From contig DATFEP010000010.1 in the NCBI GenBank assembly GCA_035250975.1, positions 1 through 43,602 on the forward strand: a stretch of DNA of 43,602 bases. Direction: 5' to 3'. The notes beneath the pieces were generated by a model. That model searched no databases and was not told the DNA's origin. It saw only the letters and a list, made by a program, of their open reading frames with translations. How positions within the stretch are numbered: the first letter of the stretch is position 1; the number at the start of each line of letters is the position of its first letter. The stretch comes from Nitrososphaeraceae archaeon. GTDB taxonomy: Archaea > Thermoproteota > Nitrososphaeria > Nitrososphaerales > Nitrososphaeraceae. Both the position numbers and the translations under genes were made by a program. Shown here one piece after another: positions 31,416-42,200 of the stretch.

Positions 31416-32039
31416 CTAGGATTTCTTTTCTTTATATTCGCTTTCTTCTAAAGGAATGCCATATACTGGATCAGTGCCAAAGTGATTATCTGTTTTTTTT
31501 GGATCAATGGATATAACACCAATATTATCATTCATTACTTGAATATTTACAGGAACTTCAGTAATGGGTGCTTCCATCATACTGATTGTTGCTGTTCCAT
31601 TAAATATTGTGCTGTTATTATTTGGATTTGAAACATCAGTTAAGATATAATTAGTAAGAGTATGTGTATGCTTTGCTGTTCCATCAGGTTTTATCATTTC
31701 AAAAGATGCATCAAAAACAGTTGAATTGTCGGTAACTTGACTTTGATTTGATAAATTGGTTTTCCATGTTCCAGATATAATCCATAATGGTTTTCCATTT
31801 TCGTCTTCTACCATACCTATTGTTCTTCCAAACAAATAGTCTCCTTCTACTACACCAGGAGGAATTCCCATTACTAGACCTACACTTGAGGAAAATAACA
31901 ACAATAATCCACCACTAGCGAGCACCAGATAGGCAATCATAAAAGAGCTTGTTATGGTATTCTTTTTAGATATTTTTTTCATTAGATTATTTTGGTTACC
32001 TTCTCTTATTACTATTTCTCTTCTATTGCCATATAACAA
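31416..32039 (-). CDS. Secreted/membrane-anchored hypothetical protein
   Basis: Hydrophobic N-terminal segment, WIISGTW, DGTAKHTH and DNHFGTDPVYG; the start is probably the internal MKKISKK. Confidence 0.75.
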   Translation of the reverse strand: MLYGNRREIVIREGNQNNLMKKISKKNTITSSFMIAYLVLASGGLLLLFSSSVGLVMGIPPGVVEGDYLFGRTIGMVEDENGKPLWIISGTWKTNLSNQSQVTDNSTVFDASFEMIKPDGTAKHTHTLTNYILTDVSNPNNNSTIFNGTATISMMEAPITEVPVNIQVMNDNIGVISIDPKKTDNHFGTDPVYGIPLEESEYKEKKS

Positions 32040-32426
32040 GAGTAAGTATGTTTGCTATAATAGGGTAAGAAGCATAATCAGATATAGTTGCGCCTAAATT
32101 GGCATACGTTCCTATCGTATATTTTAAATCCTACTAGCACCAAATGCTCCTATGGCTTGTGCAGAAAGAAATATCACAATCTGTTTTGGCAGTATATGTC
32201 CACTGATTAAGGATCTAAATGTTACTGCAGGGTTAAAATGAGCTTTTGATATCTTAACAAATGCCTTAACTGCCCAAGCGTCTATCCCTGATAATAGAGC
32301 CAAAGTCCACAATTCAGATGTACCAAAGTATTTGATTTCAATCACCTTAGGTGCTTTAGCTAAAAAAACTATAGTGAAAGTTCCTATAATTTCGGCAAGA
32401 AATATCTTTTGGTTAGATGTTAGCAT
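32040..32426 (-). pseudogene. Truncated MIP/aquaporin
   Basis: FLAEIIGTF, AHFNPAVTF (first NPA) and AQAIGAFGA; stops after about TM3 and the second NPA half is missing. Confidence 0.8.
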
Positions 32427-36559: not shown

Positions 36560-37083
36560 TACTCTTTTAGTAAGTGTTAAAGCCTCTTAATTTTTATCGA
36601 GTTTGGCTAATGCATCGACTATGTTGTTCAGTGCATAGGTCTAATAAGGATTCATTTTCAGTCCTTTCGTACCGAGTTTTAGCTTATTCTTAATTGTCAA
36701 GGTATAGAAAGCAACACTTTATAATGCATTAACATGACCAAGAACCATTTTGAGTACCAAGTAGTACCGGGTTATTGCCTCCGCAGTTCTCAAGAGATAT
36801 AAGAGCAGCTCCTTTGCACATTATGTGCATAAACATCTTTAGGATCTATTTCCAGTATCTTGTCATACATTTTATAGCCTTCTCATACATTTTATAACCT
36901 TCTCATACTTGCCATCTCTATAGAGTGTAGTACCTTTCCAGATCAGTGCATCATCATCAGAAAGTCTAGAAGGTTTATTTAGTGTATAAAATCCTTCTTC
37001 AGAAGCAAAAGAATAACCGATGATAATGAAAAATAGTGTTATAACGCCAATTCCATTTGCCGATAATAGATTCTTTTTCTCAT
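36560..37083 (-). pseudogene. Decayed membrane-anchored/secreted TPR protein, coupled to the STAND gene
   Basis: ATG overlaps the STAND stop (TGATG). Broken frames read NLLSANGIGVITLFFIIGYSFA, DDALIWKGTTLYRDGKYEK, MYDKILEIDPKDVYA and YALNNIVDALAKLDKN*EAL. There is a ~20-bp tandem duplication near 36865-36910. Confidence 0.75.
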
Positions 37084-39749
37084 CACTTCATTACAGAATT
37101 AAACGCGTTTAATTCTATTTCTTCCAACATATCTTTTAAATCGGGATCTATTTTTAACGCTTTATCATAATAATTTTTGGCTTCATCATCTTTTCCTAAA
37201 TTGTACTTTATAAAGGCAGCAGTAGAAAGATAGTATTTGTTATCAGGTGCAGATTCAAGTGCTTTTTCAATTAGTGGCACGGCCTCTTCGTTCTTATCAA
37301 GTTTGGCTAAAACAAACGCTTTGCTGTTAAGTGCATCAGTATAATTGGGATCTATTGCAAGGACCTTGTTGTACCATGAGATGGCCTCCTCGTACTTGCC
37401 GAGGTTATCTAGAGCAAGACCTTTGTTGCTCAGTGCATCAATGTAATTTGGATCTATACCCAGAACCTTGTCATACCAGGTTATTGCCTCCTCGTACTTG
37501 CCGAGGCTATTTAAGGCAGATCCTATGTTGTTAATCGCGCCGATATTATCAGGATCTATAGCCAGGGCCTTGTCATACCAGGTTATTGCCTCCTCGTACT
37601 TGGCGAGGCTATCTAGAGCCACACCTTTACTGGCAAGTGCATCAATATAATTTGGATCTACAGCCAGGGCCTTGTCATACCAGGTTATTGCCTCCTCGTT
37701 CTTGCCGAGGTTGTATAGAGCAAGACCTTTGTTGGTAAGTGTATGAACATCACTAGGATCTACAGCCAGGGCCTTGTCATACCAGGTTATTGCCTCCTCG
37801 TTCTTGCCGAGGTTGTCTATAACAATGCCTTTACTGACAAGTGCATAAGTATAATTAGGATTTATTGCCAGGGCCTTGTCATACAATGCCATGGCCTCTT
37901 TGTATTGGCCTAGACCATACAGAGCATCGCCTTTGCTGGTAAGTGCATTGACATTATTAGGGTCTTCAACCAGCGTCTTGTCATACCAGGTTATTGCCTC
38001 TTGATCCTGGCTATCTAGGTCAGCTAGAATCGTACTTGTGTTGCCAAGTGTATCAAGATAATTGGGGTCTATAGCTCGCAGCTTTTTATAATATAATTCA
38101 GAGTCAGCATCTTGAGATAATTGTTGTAATGTTAATCCTTTGTAATATAACGCATCAGTAGAATTTGGATTTATAGATAATGCTTTGGTAAATTCTAAAT
38201 TCGCCTGTTTGTAATTACCTATACCGTAATATTTAATCCCATTTGTTAGTTGTTCTAGAAGTGCTTTATCTGTTTGAACAAGTTTTTGCTCTTGTTTTAG
38301 TTCTAGTTTTTGTTGTTCCAGTTCATTTTGATAATTTGACTGTAATGATGACAAATATAGCGATATACCTATAATAGAAATTATCAGAACCGGTAAAATG
38401 ACTTTTATTCGAGATGTTCTTTTAGATTTTATCTTTTTACTAGTCCATTCCTTATTAGATTCCTTGATGGGTTTGATCAATCTATCATGTGTCAATTCAT
38501 ACCAATATGCACCGGCACGCCATTCTCTTCTTACCAGATACAATTGCGCTAAAATTTCTATTGCCTTGTTGGGTATACCTTTGGTTGAGCCAGCTTCAAG
38601 ATGGATGTTACTTCTCGTTCCACTAGATGTAATTAGATTTTCTTCACACCATCTTCTAAGGTCTTCTTCTTTTACCTTGGTTTGTTTTACAGCACTTTGA
38701 ATAGATTTCACATAGAAATCCTCTAAAGACTTGTCGACATTTGTTAAATCAGAATCAGACAAATATTTTGTATCTGACTGAATATTTTTTGATATGAATC
38801 TTTCATACCACCATCGCTGGCACACTACCTGGAGCTGTATAGGTTCAACAAATTCTCCTAGTACCTCGAGAGATCTTCCAGCTATAGTTTCAACTTTAAT
38901 CTTTGTTAAATCTCTAACGATTTGTTCAATCTCATCGATAGGAACATCATAATTTAATATTTCTAACGGGCCCTTAATAGCTTGTATAGCCTCATCATAA
39001 CCTAGTCGCTCCAATCTGAGTCGAGGTTTTAATTTTTCGGGTAAATTTGACACAAAAGGATCCATCTGGGCTAGATAGTCTTCTCTGATAACAAATACAA
39101 TTCTAAGTAGAGGATCGTTCTCAAGAGCATCGGAGATATTTGAAAAGAAATCCTGTTGGTGTTGTTGCCATTTGGTAGGATCTGAAAAAAAATTAAATAA
39201 CTCTTCAAATTGATCAAAAATTATTACTTGTGGAATATCCTTTCCTCTCTGGTTTACTTGATGTGGAAAATATATTTCCAAAAATTCGGACAACGATTGA
39301 TTTTTTAAAACAGAATAATCAGAAATATTTGGTCCTAGACTTTGAAATGTATTCAAGAGATAAAGATTATCAATAGAGTTAGAAACTGGTTCCTTATCAT
39401 CCTTTGGAGCATCTGTAGTTGCTCTATCAGTTATGTTAGAGCCAAATCCAACTCTTGCAATAGGCAAAACTTGTAATCCTCTTTTCTGTAATTCAGGTAC
39501 AATTTTGGCATTAAATAAAGAAGTCTTTCCAGCCCCAGATTGAGCATATATCAAAACTAATTTATGACTATAAATAAGAGAAATAATTTTCTCTGATTCA
39601 TAGTTTCTTCCAAAGAAAAGTTTTTGATCTTCAAGATCCTGGCTAAAAGGTCTTGGACCTACGAAAGGATTTCTTATTTCCCCTTGTTGTAGTTGAACTC
39701 CATGATGATTATTACGCTGATCTTGATCTTGACTATTATCTTTGTTCAT
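37083..39749 (-). CDS. nSTAND1-type P-loop NTPase + single TM + about 11 TPR repeats
   Basis: NPFVGPRPF..LFFGR, Walker A AQSGAGKTS, Walker B VIIFDQFEELF, IREDYL, PIQLQVVC and YELTHDRLI are nSTAND1 signatures. TM ILPVLIISIIGISLYL follows KKIKSKRTSRIK; TPRs read EEAITWYDKALAxDP. Confidence 0.9.
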   Translation of the reverse strand: MNKDNSQDQDQRNNHHGVQLQQGEIRNPFVGPRPFSQDLEDQKLFFGRNYESEKIISLIYSHKLVLIYAQSGAGKTSLFNAKIVPELQKRGLQVLPIARVGFGSNITDRATTDAPKDDKEPVSNSIDNLYLLNTFQSLGPNISDYSVLKNQSLSEFLEIYFPHQVNQRGKDIPQVIIFDQFEELFNFFSDPTKWQQHQQDFFSNISDALENDPLLRIVFVIREDYLAQMDPFVSNLPEKLKPRLRLERLGYDEAIQAIKGPLEILNYDVPIDEIEQIVRDLTKIKVETIAGRSLEVLGEFVEPIQLQVVCQRWWYERFISKNIQSDTKYLSDSDLTNVDKSLEDFYVKSIQSAVKQTKVKEEDLRRWCEENLITSSGTRSNIHLEAGSTKGIPNKAIEILAQLYLVRREWRAGAYWYELTHDRLIKPIKESNKEWTSKKIKSKRTSRIKVILPVLIISIIGISLYLSSLQSNYQNELEQQKLELKQEQKLVQTDKALLEQLTNGIKYYGIGNYKQANLEFTKALSINPNSTDALYYKGLTLQQLSQDADSELYYKKLRAIDPNYLDTLGNTSTILADLDSQDQEAITWYDKTLVEDPNNVNALTSKGDALYGLGQYKEAMALYDKALAINPNYTYALVSKGIVIDNLGKNEEAITWYDKALAVDPSDVHTLTNKGLALYNLGKNEEAITWYDKALAVDPNYIDALASKGVALDSLAKYEEAITWYDKALAIDPDNIGAINNIGSALNSLGKYEEAITWYDKVLGIDPNYIDALSNKGLALDNLGKYEEAISWYNKVLAIDPNYTDALNSKAFVLAKLDKNEEAVPLIEKALESAPDNKYYLSTAAFIKYNLGKDDEAKNYYDKALKIDPDLKDMLEEIELNAFNSVMK
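37357..38000 (-). repeat. 102-bp tandem TPR-coding repeats with high nucleotide identity
   Basis: CTTGTCATACCAGGTTATTGCCTC recurs exactly near 37467, 37569, 37671, 37773 and 37977 (102-bp register); the region is visibly more GC-rich than its surroundings. Confidence 0.92.
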
Positions 39750-40654
39750 GGATTCTTAAATTTTTCCCAACGATCTCTCAATTCTTTGGCAAAGTTATTG
39801 ACGTCTCCCCAATAAACACGGACCTTGAACATATTTCTTGTGTACTGATCTAAATACCTAATTGCTTGTTCTTTCTTTTCTTCTGTAAAACCATAGGGAA
39901 GTTGTACAGCTATACTGGGCAGTTGTAACCCGCTGCCTAACCCTTCTCCCAACAGGTGCATAAGGCTCCTAAAAATAAAACGAAAGTTTATGTCTCTTAA
40001 ACTGTAACCAATAAACAATAACGATGTACTGTTCAATGCTGTATAAATCTGATAAGGTAATATTTCTTCTTCTTTGGATAACATAATCAAGAAGTCTAGA
40101 TAATCTGTTTCTGTTAGAACCATCGAACGCGGATGATCAACATTGCCATGGAGGTGGTAAACCAATGGTTTTTCTTGAGTTGGCTTATAGTCTTTTGTGT
40201 CAAAAACAGATTGAACGTTGGCTTGTCTTTTTAAAAAACTATTCCATCTACAAAATTCATTCACAGGATCTTTTCCTCTGCTTCTAAGTGCTGCTTCCAT
40301 AAATTCATCGTAATTAGTAGTAATATAAAGAGGAAGATTGAGATCAGCAAGAATAGCATGTGCTTTATTTTTATATTCTTGTTGGGAGAAATCGGGAATA
40401 TTTACTTTTTTAAGCCATCTGACAATAAAGTTCTTTGGAAACATATCTCCATGTTCAATTGCAACATATTGAGATACTCTGTCCAAGTCACGAACATCGT
40501 CTAGCGGGTATTGGTATTCTTCTGCCATTTCCATAGATATCTTACTACCCAGAGGGAGCCAATCAGTAGATGCGCCTGCTCCTATAAATGGAGTACATCC
40601 TTGTTCATCTATCGAATATAGTAATTCTTCCCAGTCTGCATCTCTTAGGCTCAA
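39746..40654 (-). CDS. Stand-alone SIR2-like (SIR2_2) protein, predicted NAD+ hydrolase
   Basis: PFIGAGAS, YITTNYD, YHLHG, VLTETDY and LLFIGYSLRD; stop overlaps the STAND start (ATGA). Confidence 0.9.
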   Translation of the reverse strand: MSLRDADWEELLYSIDEQGCTPFIGAGASTDWLPLGSKISMEMAEEYQYPLDDVRDLDRVSQYVAIEHGDMFPKNFIVRWLKKVNIPDFSQQEYKNKAHAILADLNLPLYITTNYDEFMEAALRSRGKDPVNEFCRWNSFLKRQANVQSVFDTKDYKPTQEKPLVYHLHGNVDHPRSMVLTETDYLDFLIMLSKEEEILPYQIYTALNSTSLLFIGYSLRDINFRFIFRSLMHLLGEGLGSGLQLPSIAVQLPYGFTEEKKEQAIRYLDQYTRNMFKVRVYWGDVNNFAKELRDRWEKFKNP

Positions 40655-41018
40655 CGATTATGCAATTTTATGAGAATGTTTTAATAAAAAGTTTTTCCCA
40701 TGATTTCATAATTTTCCAAATAATTGAAAGATTTTGCTTTTTTATTTAAATTGTTTATAACTTTATGTCATGCTCTACGAATATTTAGAATAAGGGAAAT
40801 AAAAAAATAAACTTTCATCCTATCAGATGAAAAATTGTAAGTTGTTGAATTTGCACTATATGAGATGGAGACTAGTTAAAAATTAAGTTGACAGTTGATT
40901 AAAATAAAATACGTTTTTTACTTTACTAAAATTTATATTTCATCTTATTCCTAAAAACGGTACACTAGGTATGATGAATCTGCATAGACTCTTTTGTTTG
41001 TAATTGAATAAGAAATAG

Positions 41019-41087: not shown

Positions 41088-42200
41088 TTATCTAGATACA
41101 TCTATTTCTAGAGCATCCATTACTGCTACATTATCTTTTAGATATATATTTAGAATAACTGAACCAGGATTCTTTCCTTTTATTGTCAAAGTTGTCTTTC
41201 CATGGCCATCTGTTTTTAGTTCTTCCGAACTTAGTTCTATGTTCTCTTGGTTGTCTACTAGATTAACAATAATTTCTTTTTCCTTTAATGGTCTATCTTT
41301 AAAATCACATGCAATTATTTTCAAATCAAGTTCTTCATTGACTTTTATGCTCTTGCTAGTATAAGGAAGAATGATTTTCGAGTCTGTTTTATCTTGAGAT
41401 TCATCTCCTGATTCTCTGACTTGAGTTCCAAACAATGTCATGAAGATGTCTCTTAATTTCTTTGTTGCCTCTGTTGCCATCAAACCTGCTGTTACACTTA
41501 TTGCTGCAACACCAAAGTAATTGAGGTCTGCAGGCTGAGCGTTGATACTTAATATACCTCCGCGTATCAGAAGATAAAATACTATGGCTGCTATTCCTGC
41601 AATCACAGGTCTTCCAAAATACCATATTGTCCAACTACCATCATGCCTTCTATTTCCAACATATGTAACCAATGATGATAATCCGTGGGTTGCCCCTCCA
41701 ATTATTCCAAATGCTAATACTAATACAACGAGTTGAAATTCTCTGTCAATGTTTTTGCCAAAAGCAAAGTTGCTTTTATTTTGTATTACAGTACCGTTTT
41801 CTTTAACAACAATATTGGATATTTCTGGACTATTACTTGCATTCCTATTATGTTTTATGGTTATTTTTGATACTGCCATGGTTTGATTTGAATTGACTAG
41901 TTCAGACTGTTCTGTTCCGTTGGCATATTTAATTGTCTTTTCTTCTTTGGTATAATCAAAAATATCTAAAGGAACTGGATCCCAATAATCCAATATCAAA
42001 TAAATAGATATTACCAAGACAATTATGTAATATACAAAAATGATTGGTATTTCTTTATGTTTTTTAATAATATCAAAACTGTCCCCTCTCATTGAATGAC
42101 AAAAACTATATCGCCTATATAGATTTTTTGGCAATATGTTTGAATGAATAATAATTGCAATATGATCATCATTAAATATTGATATATTCGTAATGTTCAA
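41088..42200 (-). CDS. Membrane protein: TM + loop + 3-TM bundle + C-terminal Ig-like (Big_1-like) domain
   Basis: FGIIGGATHGLSSL..GNR..SWTIWYFGRPVIAG..YFGVAAISVTAGL TM bundle; KTDGHGKTTLTIKGKNPG is Ig-like. The start is probably MRGDSF. Confidence 0.75.
   Translation of the reverse strand: MNITNISIFNDDHIAIIIHSNILPKNLYRRYSFCHSMRGDSFDIIKKHKEIPIIFVYYIIVLVISIYLILDYWDPVPLDIFDYTKEEKTIKYANGTEQSELVNSNQTMAVSKITIKHNRNASNSPEISNIVVKENGTVIQNKSNFAFGKNIDREFQLVVLVLAFGIIGGATHGLSSLVTYVGNRRHDGSWTIWYFGRPVIAGIAAIVFYLLIRGGILSINAQPADLNYFGVAAISVTAGLMATEATKKLRDIFMTLFGTQVRESGDESQDKTDSKIILPYTSKSIKVNEELDLKIIACDFKDRPLKEKEIIVNLVDNQENIELSSEELKTDGHGKTTLTIKGKNPGSVILNIYLKDNVAVMDALEIDVSR

Follow-up and report, generated by a model that had tools for sequence, protein, structure and literature searches.

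SIR2 and STAND systems closest to the locus

Avs5 (AVAST type 5; EfAvs5, PDB 9jap, and PaAvs5) places a SIR2 NADase under a STAND NTPase with C-terminal repeats, and the activated protein depletes NAD+ according to PMC12931631. The pair of genes described here is similar in this respect, and in fold the model of its SIR2 protein resembles the corresponding domain of EfAvs5 (Foldseek E = 9.3e-11). In Avs5, however, SIR2 forms the N-terminal domain of a soluble cytoplasmic fusion protein, whereas here SIR2 is a separate gene, the NTPase belongs to the nSTAND1 family, and a predicted membrane helix lies between the NTPase and the repeats. At E ≤ 0.01, the sequence matches listed for the SIR2 profile included no Avs5 chain.

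The closest sequence relatives of the SIR2 protein are the SIR2-SLOG proteins of Thoeris, ThsA (SeThsA, E = 1.2e-20 with the profile). The other Thoeris component, ThsB, is a TIR protein, and TIR is fused to SIR2 in both paralogous pairs found elsewhere in the genome. Unlike ThsA, the SIR2 protein has no SLOG or Macro ligand-binding domain, its partner is a STAND NTPase rather than a TIR signal generator, and the window contains no ThsB/TIR gene. Kongming KomC (PDB 8zsf, 9v0g) is both the best single-sequence PDB match (E = 6.3e-15) and the top Foldseek match, and it too is a stand-alone SIR2 protein (~264–278 aa) whose partners are encoded by separate genes. Those of KomC involve a HAM-type protein and dITP, as given in the PDB titles, whereas the partner here is a membrane STAND protein; no HAM-type KomC partner was found among the window ORFs.

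The NTPase family, PF20703, is that of the nSTAND1 conflict systems (Kaur, Burroughs, Iyer, Aravind, eLife 2021) and the DGR-diversified STAND sensors (Dore et al., PNAS 2024). Those systems share the logic of the present pair, in that variable sensors built of repeats or lectin domains are combined with effectors of the TIR, caspase or EAD-linked kind, and a periplasmic location has already been predicted for some STAND-linked lectin sensors (passages of Dore et al., PNAS 2024). EAD7 or EAD8 likewise occurs in some bacterial relatives of the present pair. The effectors in the text passages of these papers are, in contrast, N-terminally fused or linked through EAD adaptors; the passages contain no constant upstream SIR2 gene with an effector-less nSTAND1-TM protein, and no description of a SIR2_2 and nSTAND1-TM pair was found in the text passages of the literature.

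Two intact genes and a pseudogene

The window analysed is a 43,602-nt stretch of a Nitrososphaeraceae genome; the organism is an ammonia oxidiser, as it encodes archaeal AmoA (E = 1.1e-118). The initial annotation described three overlapping minus-strand genes encoding a SIR2 protein, an nSTAND1-TM-TPR receptor and a coupled TPR protein (Table 1). The first two are intact and, from their coordinates, overlap by 4 nt (ATGA). The third is a pseudogene. Its start ATG overlaps the STAND stop codon (TGATG), but a TAA ends the frame after 14 codons (translation table 11), and peptides resembling TM and TPR segments are found in pieces distributed among all three frames and interrupted by several stop codons. 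The sequence also contains a 20-bp tandem duplication (36859-36908). One soil contig (run X2, depth 3) has an additional base at 37069 that would bring the ATG into the TM-TPR frame. This third gene is a decayed remnant and plays no part in the working system, which here comprises two genes; the decay of the third gene implies that selection on the locus may be relaxed.

Table 1. Features of the SIR2/STAND locus, in window coordinates
Feature	Position	Strand	Basis or remarks
TATA-like A/T-rich element TTTTTATTAAAA	40679..40690	-	25-36 nt upstream of the SIR2 start codon; read from sequence
SIR2_2-family gene	39746..40654	-	302 aa, TTG start; ThsA/KomC-like SIR2 domain, Asn114 and His169 intact
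STAND gene	37083..39749	-	888 aa
Polar, probably disordered N-terminus of the STAND protein, 25 residues	39675..39749	-	pLDDT <50 for residues 1-24
nSTAND1 NTPase module, residues 28-445, taken as cytoplasmic	38415..39668	-	Pfam, AF2, Foldseek, motifs
Juxtamembrane basic cluster K438-K449	38403..38438	-	7 K/R in 12 residues
Single predicted TM helix, ~V450-L469	38343..38402	-	19-residue Kyte-Doolittle mean up to 2.44
Predicted extracytoplasmic part: polar coiled-coil-like linker (residues ~470-505), then ~10-unit TPR array (~505-880)	37086..38342	-	TPR_1 E=3.9e-64; outside by the positive-inside rule
Tandem array of 102-bp (34-aa) TPR units	37319..38000	-	6.7 copies, 77% matches (TRF)
Pseudogene of a small signal-anchored TPR protein	36560..37084	-	three-frame translation; frameshifts and stops

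The A/T-rich element upstream of the SIR2 gene is a putative promoter of the two-gene operon. The 433-nt spacer between the SIR2 gene and the next gene holds neither an ORF nor a TIR remnant. A PADLOC scan of the 22 other window ORFs returned no matches at E ≤ 1e-5, and by this measure no defence island is recognisable in the window.

The 302-aa protein matches Pfam SIR2_2 (E = 1.9e-26, 93.3 bits, cut-off 24.5) and the PADLOC ThsA SIR2 models (E ~1e-22), and consists of a bare SIR2 domain to which Pfam adds no grafted effector. It keeps the GAGAS (residues 25-29), TTNYD (112-116) and HLHG (167-170) motifs, the last containing the HG that had been pointed out. Its AF2 model (pLDDT 90.3) has KomBC/KomC, ThsA, DSR2 and EfAvs5 as top Foldseek matches. 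In the HMMER alignment with KomC, TTNYD falls on TTNYD and His169 corresponds to the histidine replaced by N in the KomC(H146N) entry; Asp116 is also kept. By its fold and catalytic residues the protein appears defence-NADase-like, and it would probably hydrolyze NAD+.

The 888-aa protein matches Pfam nSTAND1 over residues 28-283 (E = 2.7e-25, 90.3 bits, cut-off 27.1). With no Pfam match before residue 28 and low model confidence for the preceding residues, the protein lacks an N-terminal effector domain, as the initial annotation had held. The NTPase module carries a conserved N-terminal P-x-x-G-P-R-P-F motif, a Walker A motif (AQSGAGKTS, residues 69-77) and a Walker B motif (IIFDQFEE, ~176-183), includes helical and winged-helix parts, and has invariant columns across 17 homologues. 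Foldseek matches of the AF2 model (pLDDT 78.9) comprise archaeal AAA+ proteins (2qen, 2fna), ORC/Cdc6, Apaf-1, Avs4 and plant NLRs. At the sequence level the NTPase has no PDB relative at E ≤ 0.01, and on the question of whether the system is already modelled, no PADLOC v2.0.0 NTPase model matched at E ≤ 0.01 except a marginal, partial hit to PbeC (E = 0.0087).

Predicted membrane helix and topology, and a variable putative sensor

The single TM helix noted after a basic cluster and before the TPRs proved to be a family-wide feature. Of 120 close protein homologues, 119 have a hydrophobic helix after the NTPase, and in all 119 of these K+R is higher on the N-side (means 6.3 in the 15 residues before the helix and 0.56 after it). 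STAND ORFs at the related genome loci have the helix in 67 of 76 cases, with the same bias in 63 of the 67. Both the TM helix and the basic flank on its N-side are conserved in the family. In the AF2 model the TM segment runs on within a long helix (422-479), and beyond it many TPR families besides TPR_1 match residues ~500-880, so that SIR2_2, nSTAND1 and TPR are all recognised by Pfam. The most likely topology, judged by hydropathy and the positive-inside rule alone, is N-in/C-out, with the NTPase in the cytoplasm and the TPR array outside the membrane. The outward-facing repeats and Toll-like relay proposed initially remain predictions drawn from the same hydropathy and charge bias.

The number of TPR units varies from one assembly to another. 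Protein P0001 is identical to the window STAND protein over residues 1-699 and then has one extra 34-aa unit in the array, and contig joints in runs X2 and X3 give net changes of +102 nt and -102 nt. Among relatives the whole post-helix domain changes while SIR2, nSTAND1 and the TM helix stay constant. WD40 and TPR repeats, which in characterised STAND proteins are usually cytoplasmic, are the commonest; other homologues carry YVTN/YncE propellers, PD40, PPC, an M14 peptidase or FGE-sulfatase, domains usually located outside the cytoplasm.

The helix might instead only tether the protein, or be monotopic or re-entrant, leaving the repeats in the cytoplasm to sense invader proteins near the membrane as in classical Avs. 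The dominance of WD40 and TPR arrays fits such an arrangement, as does the binding of cytoplasmic phage proteins by every Avs/STAND sensor characterised so far (PMC12803255, PMC12931631); spatial targeting is also plausible because Avs5 has been reported at infection vesicles. We nevertheless regard this as highly improbable: a single ~20-residue segment whose very high hydropathy is 2.1-3.2 in most homologues, and whose K/R residues lie strongly to one side, is what a signal anchor that spans the membrane typically looks like, and partner domains such as PD40, PPC, M14 peptidase and YVTN point to the outside.

Conservation of the pair and the role of SIR2

Related loci were counted among the best 80 of >500 matches in each of two collections, genome contigs and metagenomes, which is not a random sample. 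The genome loci contained a STAND ORF in 76 cases, 69 of them with an abutting upstream same-strand ORF, and this ORF was SIR2_2 in 63/69. In the metagenomes a SIR2-profile ORF lay directly upstream of 67/81 STAND ORFs, and 8 of the 14 others had <~700 nt of contig upstream. Pairwise identities of SIR2 and STAND co-vary (r = 0.67, 63 pairs; none of 500 label permutations exceeded 0.13). SIR2 is therefore clearly tied to nSTAND1 elsewhere, and the layout is not an archaeal peculiarity: for most of the 160 related loci (best 80 per collection), record title or G+C indicates a bacterial source. Lineages from soil and sediment, such as Chloroflexota, Acidobacteriota and Planctomycetota, are among those with the module. 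Considering how many bacterial phyla contain the pair, it looks like a widespread conflict or immune sensor that has not been described.

The generic protein- or glycan-binding repeats in the predicted ectodomains, the soil and sediment distribution and the lack of a defence-island context in the window would also suit envelope or social signalling rather than anti-virus immunity, in which S-layer or cell-wall state, neighbours (kin or non-self) or predators are sensed and growth arrest or differentiation follows. Text passages of the papers that named nSTAND1 (PMC8195603, PMC7159879) tie such systems to multicellular or social prokaryotes. We consider this improbable, since the module is patchy among close relatives (of 60, G019 alone carries both genes and the others carry neither; 2/61 with the present genome), the genome holds three diverging paralogous SIR2/STAND pairs, and the sensor domain changes fast. 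TIR, caspase and SIR2 effectors, together with TIR, TPR-S and CHAT genes neighbouring the paralogous loci, are hallmarks of conflict systems.

We somewhat favor, at slightly better than even, a two-gene, translationally coupled conflict module of immune or abortive type, belonging to an undescribed but widespread family, in which clustering of an N-in/C-out, NLR-like STAND receptor would activate a ThsA/KomC-like NADase. The ectodomain would bind a cue on the envelope side, or be clustered by it; a virion surface, material from foreign cells and damage to the envelope are examples. Clustering of the single-pass receptors would bring the STAND modules together for NTP-dependent oligomerisation at the membrane, and the STAND oligomer could then recruit the SIR2 protein, presumably its dedicated cytoplasmic partner through direct contact, into an active oligomer or filament. 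Hydrolysis of NAD+ would lead to cell arrest. The solved SIR2 domains of ThsA, KomC, DSR2 and Avs5 assemble as oligomers or filaments.

The initial annotation, partly confirmed in its observations and partly supported in its interpretation, took the SIR2 protein as a stand-alone NADase effector. In the window SIR2 is indeed a separate gene with both catalytic residues, but across the family it is a constant component more than a swappable NADase effector. Upstream partners at the 63 genome loci (best 80 of >500) include 10 CHAT fusions, one SIR2-CHAT, one TIR and four EAD7 fusions; TIR, caspase, CHAT and EAD8-TIR fusions were seen elsewhere. Among 66 aligned SIR2 partners the canonical Asn is kept in 31 and His in 38. 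Because only 22/66 keep both, SIR2 in the family as a whole may act less as an enzyme than as a docking module. CHAT-SIR2 fusions mostly have F or N at the His position, and the paralogue C44 has T at the Asn position.

These substitutions, the near-invariance of SIR2 as a neighbor, the effector domains fused onto it and the two TIR-SIR2 paralogues are what would be expected if SIR2 were mainly an adaptor or scaffold docking on the STAND oligomer, with the TIR, CHAT and caspase grafts doing the damage. A stand-alone protein like that of the window may then do no more than regulate the receptor or mark it, through ADP-ribosylation or deacylation for instance. We judge this rather unlikely, given that the window SIR2 bears no such graft, that it keeps TTNYD, Asp116 and His169 in alignment with the catalytic motif of KomC, and that its nearest solved relatives are active NADases.

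Architecture of the gene pair and fate of the third gene

The SIR2 and STAND genes of the module share four nucleotides, ATGA, as judged from their coordinates. Pfam assigned SIR2_2 (PF13289) to the 302-aa protein (E = 1.9e-26, 93.3 bits against a cut-off of 24.5) and nSTAND1 (PF20703) to residues 28-283 of the 888-aa STAND protein (E = 2.7e-25, 90.3 bits against a cut-off of 27.1), and its residues ~500-880 matched numerous TPR families; NCBIfam has no name for either protein. The initial annotation had described a SIR2 protein that keeps TTNYD and HG, and a STAND protein with no N-terminal effector and one transmembrane (TM) segment preceded by a basic cluster. These features are all present. 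The SIR2 protein retains N114 in TTNYD and H169 in HLHG, together with Asp116. In a HMMER alignment with solved KomC, a defence protein with a SIR2 domain, the two TTNYD motifs coincide and His169 falls on the position occupied by Asn in the KomC(H146N) entry. The STAND protein begins with a polar segment of ~25 residues (25-27 ahead of the NTPase) and contains Walker A GAGKTS and Walker B IIFDQFEE motifs, whose core columns are invariant across 17 homologues. Its single strongly hydrophobic stretch, at about V450-L469, is preceded by K438-K449, which has 7 K/R in 12 residues, and followed by a polar linker. Sequons for N-glycosylation, four in the predicted cytoplasmic part and four in the part after the helix, are uninformative.

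The SIR2 model (pLDDT 90.3, pTM 0.90) gave KomBC/KomC, BcThsA, SeThsA, DSR2, and EfAvs5 as its best Foldseek matches, and several of the matched PDB entries bear titles that describe helical assemblies. In a profile comparison, SeThsA (1.2e-20) and KomC are the closest solved relatives, with DSR2 distant; no Avs5 entry is among the solved-structure matches listed for the SIR2 profile at E ≤ 0.01. The AF2 model of the NTPase (pLDDT 78.9) comprises a P-loop domain with helical and winged-helix parts, and one long helix runs from residue 422 to 479 through the basic stretch and the hydrophobic segment. Foldseek matched this model with a probability of 1.00 to an archaeal AAA+ protein (2qen), ORC/Cdc6, Apaf-1, Avs4, and plant NLRs, at TM-scores of just 0.27-0.40, and the NTPase profile matched no solved structure by sequence at E ≤ 0.01. 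When STAND residues 1-445 were modelled in complex with SIR2 from custom alignments, the prediction scored 0.14 against a mark of 0.32, which counts neither for nor against binding.

The locus had been annotated as three chained genes. The SIR2 and STAND genes stand as intact ORFs; the third, a coupled TPR gene, does not. The ATG in its TGATG overlap opens just 14 codons before a TAA, and peptides resembling a signal anchor and TPRs are spread over all three frames with stops between them. The stretch also contains a 20-bp tandem duplication. We conclude that it is what remains of a gene for a small membrane-anchored TPR protein. Contigs from four sequencing runs were compared: those of the likely source run span 37787-41000 with one difference and cover the third-gene region thinly. 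A low-depth contig from another soil run, which is weak evidence, differs by one additional base at 37069 and by a 6-nt insertion at 36948. We reject decay of the whole module, as the other two ORFs are open over 302 and 888 codons with their core motifs intact.

Coordinates of the SIR2-nSTAND1 modules and of the TPR unit array
Feature	Position	Strand	Description
Window SIR2 gene	39746..40654	-	302 aa, TTG start
Window STAND gene	37083..39749	-	888 aa
TPR unit array of window STAND	37319-38000	-	tandem 102-bp units, 6.7 copies
Paralogous module C44, same genome	L012:5566-10096		TIR_2-SIR2_2 then nSTAND1-TM-propeller
Paralogous module C54, same genome	L013:5899-10613		TIR_2-SIR2_2 then nSTAND1-TM-propeller
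Orthologue in G019, same-genus relative	L014:7550-12261		

Distribution of the SIR2-nSTAND1 pair

The window is an entire 43.6-kb contig of a 2.49-Mb genome bin that encodes archaeal AmoA (E = 1.1e-118). This genome holds three SIR2_2 and three nSTAND1 genes, each time as a neighbouring pair. In the two paralogous modules the SIR2 protein bears a TIR_2 domain at its N-terminus, and the STAND protein consists of the NTPase, a basic stretch, and a hydrophobic helix followed by YncE/lactonase/NHL-type beta-propellers instead of TPRs. The TIR-SIR2 protein of the C44 module has Thr at the catalytic Asn position. Among 60 sampled relatives the STAND gene was found in one, G019, with a SIR2 gene beside it. 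We therefore take the module to be accessory and patchily distributed, with the two genes moving as a pair. The named close STAND homologues are from records of Nitrososphaeraceae, Nitrosocosmicus, and Nitrosopolaris.

The wider family is large, with 3491 protein-cluster representatives matching the NTPase part (residues 1-480) at E ≤ 1e-5 among 8000 candidates scored. A scan of one genome per species with a single-protein query found no relative; repeated with an alignment of 17 NTPase modules, it yielded 539 relatives among 606 pattern matches. The best 80 of these 539 loci are mostly bacterial according to their record labels, and include Chloroflexota, Acidobacteriota, Verrucomicrobiota, Planctomycetota, Actinomycetota, Bacteroidota, Nitrospirota, Gammaproteobacteria, Gemmatimonas, and Methylomirabilota. 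Archaea are represented by two Nitrososphaeraceae loci and one Methanosarcinales locus.

A STAND ORF could be delimited in 76 of these 80 loci. A P-loop was identified in 75 of the ORFs and sits in the first ~95 residues in 69 of them, which means that most of the STAND ORFs have no fused effector. A same-strand ORF abuts the STAND gene upstream in 69 of the 76 loci, and in 63 of the 69 this ORF is SIR2_2 (Pfam E ≤ 1e-4). The six exceptions include one pyruvate kinase, one TraB-family protein, and four without a family; at one of the six loci (L093) TIR is fused to the STAND N-terminus instead. Analysis of the best 80 metagenome loci placed an ORF matching the SIR2 profile directly upstream of 67 of 81 STAND ORFs, and eight of the remaining 14 STAND ORFs are within ~700 nt of a contig end. 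Pairwise identities of SIR2 and STAND are correlated (r = 0.67 over 63 pairs, with none of 500 label permutations above 0.13). At the level of sequence this correlation, to which shared ancestry of the hosts contributes, shows inheritance of the two proteins as a unit. Far from being a local oddity, the SIR2-nSTAND1-TM pair forms a module that is both conserved and widespread. The initial interpretation as a transmembrane NLR-like system is partly supported; the linkage of SIR2 to nSTAND1 genes elsewhere on which it depended is found in both sets of loci, and the interpretation is strengthened in that the pair is conserved and widespread.

Downstream of STAND, a hydrophobic N-terminus was present in just 5 of 41 ORFs at the genome loci, and a secreted third component is no feature of the family. 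After the C54-type STAND gene (L013:10687-11640 and L014:12337-13290) a conserved protein of 317 aa is encoded, which has a hydrophobic segment at its N-terminus and no family in Pfam or PADLOC. Its gene sits where the window has the dead TPR gene.

Several individual loci depart from the simple arrangement. One bacterial locus has a second nSTAND1 gene (L071:6779-9028), and another a second complete SIR2 and nSTAND1 pair in tandem (L162:3911-9254). On a metagenome contig of 27% G+C (L106), the nSTAND1 ORF ends at 442 aa with no TM helix, and no SIR2 gene is present in the 4 kb upstream; it may represent an archaeal copy that is truncated or has another partner.

Membrane helix, post-helix domain and SIR2 partner

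Among the best 120 NTPase homologues, which are 35-100% identical, a hydrophobic 19-mer directly follows the NTPase in 119. In all 119 the 15 residues before the helix contain more K+R than the 15 after it (means 6.3 vs 0.56). At the genome loci a post-NTPase helix was detected in 67 of 76 ORFs, with an N-side K/R excess in 63 of the 67. The domain beyond the helix varies widely. A WD40 propeller is commonest among the 65 genome-locus proteins scanned with Pfam, and TPR, PD40, FGE-sulfatase, pentapeptide repeats, Peptidase_M14, and PPC also occur; at least 17 of the 65 have a post-helix part without a Pfam match. YVTN, PD40, PPC, and M14 domains are usually extracytoplasmic. Because this tendency of the partner domains and the positive-inside rule point the same way, we infer from the sequences that the STAND repeat domain is outside the membrane and the NTPase inside.

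The TPR array itself differs between near-identical copies. A STAND homologue from another assembly is identical over residues 1-699 and then has one additional 34-aa unit in the array, and contigs of two other soil runs contain joints of net +102 nt and -102 nt within it. These differences are suggestive of unit gain and loss, signals that collapse of repeats during assembly could mimic.

The SIR2 partner takes several forms. It is SIR2 alone in 47 of the 63 genome loci, CHAT-SIR2 in 10 (one also with FGE), SIR2-CHAT in one, TIR-SIR2 in one, and SIR2 with EAD7 in four; TIR-SIR2, caspase-SIR2, CHAT-SIR2, and EAD8-TIR-SIR2 occur at the metagenome loci. EAD7 is located on the SIR2 C-terminus in L015, L017, and L019, and on a separate gene some 1 kb upstream of SIR2 in L048, L061, L065, and L077, which hints at extra EAD-coupled components in some bacterial versions. 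The catalytic residues are unevenly kept. Of 66 aligned SIR2 partners, 31 retain the Asn of TTNYD and 24 have Ser there, while 38 retain the His that precedes the conserved Gly and 23 have F, Y, or C. The two residues occur together in 22, as they do in the window copy. In most of the CHAT fusions the His position is taken by F or N. Since the catalytic residues are often lost and TIR, CHAT, or caspase domains are grafted onto SIR2, these sequences suggest that its conserved job may be coupling to the STAND oligomer, with NADase activity kept in a subset that includes the window copy.

Comparison with known systems and a candidate mechanism

The working of the module can be likened to that of Avs5, a SIR2-STAND protein. 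In Avs5, however, SIR2 is fused to the STAND N-terminus in one polypeptide and the sensor is soluble and cytoplasmic, whereas the window has two overlapping ORFs and a strong hydrophobic helix between NTPase and repeats. The Avs5 NTPase is recognized by Avs models, but the window NTPase is not: in PADLOC v2.0.0 its sole match at E ≤ 0.01 is a marginal partial one to PbeC (E = 0.0087), which is not an Avs model, and the other matches of the STAND protein are to TPR-region models. Lacking the fusion, the soluble sensor, and recognition by Avs models, the module is not Avs5.

The module uses a ThsA/KomC-type SIR2, and the window SIR2 matches the ThsA SIR2 models of PADLOC v2.0.0 at E ~ 1e-22. In Thoeris, however, ThsA has a SLOG (or Macro/TM) signal-binding domain beside SIR2 and the adjacent ThsB gene encodes a TIR protein, whereas the 302-aa protein is SIR2_2 only and the window has no TIR gene. 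Using the two paralogue TIR domains as queries, tblastn returned no TIR in the window at E < 0.01 outside the SIR2 ORF, and Pfam detected none among 33 window ORFs. Nor is there a TIR remnant upstream of SIR2, where the 433-nt spacer is non-coding. With no SLOG domain and no ThsB gene, Thoeris is ruled out. Kongming, to judge from PDB titles, has a HAM-type partner gene beside the KomC SIR2; Pfam found none among the 35 window ORFs scanned.

The nSTAND1 family was named by Kaur et al. (eLife 2021), is mentioned by Dore et al. (PNAS 2024), and appears in a 2026 preprint on ParA NTPases. In the passages of these sources that concern it, nSTAND1 is accompanied by N-terminal effectors or EAD adaptors, and one of the three describes some STAND-linked lectin sensors as predicted to be periplasmic. 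A search of the running text of the literature found no description of a constant SIR2 gene paired with an effector-less nSTAND1-TM protein. The novelty appears to reside in the split SIR2 partner, the membrane-spanning layout, and an apparent adaptor role of SIR2.

We propose a receptor with its NTPase inside, its repeats outside, and a dedicated SIR2 partner. A surface cue would bind or cluster the ectodomains, the cytoplasmic STAND modules would oligomerize with NTP, the STAND oligomer would recruit and assemble SIR2, and NAD+ would be destroyed. In the model, the continuous helix from the winged-helix region into the membrane and the polar linker would suit transmission by clustering or helix packing. 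We favor this four-step mechanism as a whole with moderate confidence, because all of its steps are inferred, as are topology, ligand, binding, and activity.

A broader generalization is more tentative. The family could comprise widespread prokaryotic transmembrane NLR-like receptors, in which single-pass nSTAND1 NTPases with fast-evolving ectodomains would survey the cell surface and detect virions or foreign cells before genome entry. The signal would pass inward by clustering-driven oligomerization to a dedicated SIR2 module, at once an NADase and the universal platform to which grafted TIR, caspase, or CHAT effectors dock. Such receptors would combine a Toll-like topology with an NLR core, in ammonia-oxidizing archaea and at least 10 bacterial phyla.

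To our knowledge, the characterized prokaryotic STAND/Avs sensors are all cytoplasmic with the effector in the same polypeptide, and virus defence in soil ammonia-oxidizing archaea is almost unstudied. Should the family indeed span the membrane with an external sensor, it would be the first NLR-like system in prokaryotes to detect its cue at the cell surface. It would also offer a tractable model of a single-pass receptor switching a STAND oligomer, and the SIR2 domain would be a conserved coupling module besides an NADase. The module would add a candidate innate-immunity system to soil ammonia-oxidizing archaea. As PADLOC v2.0.0 has no model for the family, current defence-system censuses probably miss it.

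The surroundings of the three modules differ. Near the C44 module (L012:12667-15000), one gene encodes a MAP3K_TRAF_bd/TPR-S protein and another a TIR_2 protein that has a TM segment, and in G019 a CHAT protein is nearby (L014:13936-14928). The window copy, unlike the paralogues, is not in such a conflict-gene neighbourhood, and PADLOC gave no matches for 22 other window ORFs. Upstream, separated from SIR2 by the spacer, which is A/T-rich, is a minus-strand gene (41088-42200) whose 370-aa product contains several hydrophobic stretches and belongs to no confidently assigned family. The G+C content of 0.34-0.41 at 37001-40000, within the module, exceeds that of the flanks (0.24-0.32), which could reflect foreign origin or merely TPR amino-acid composition. 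Elsewhere in the window, a 100-aa minus-strand ORF (32124-32426) matches just positions 7-103 of 222 in the MIP (aquaporin) profile. It lies next to another minus-strand ORF, 31416-32039, which has no family, and the two may be a split or broken aquaporin gene.
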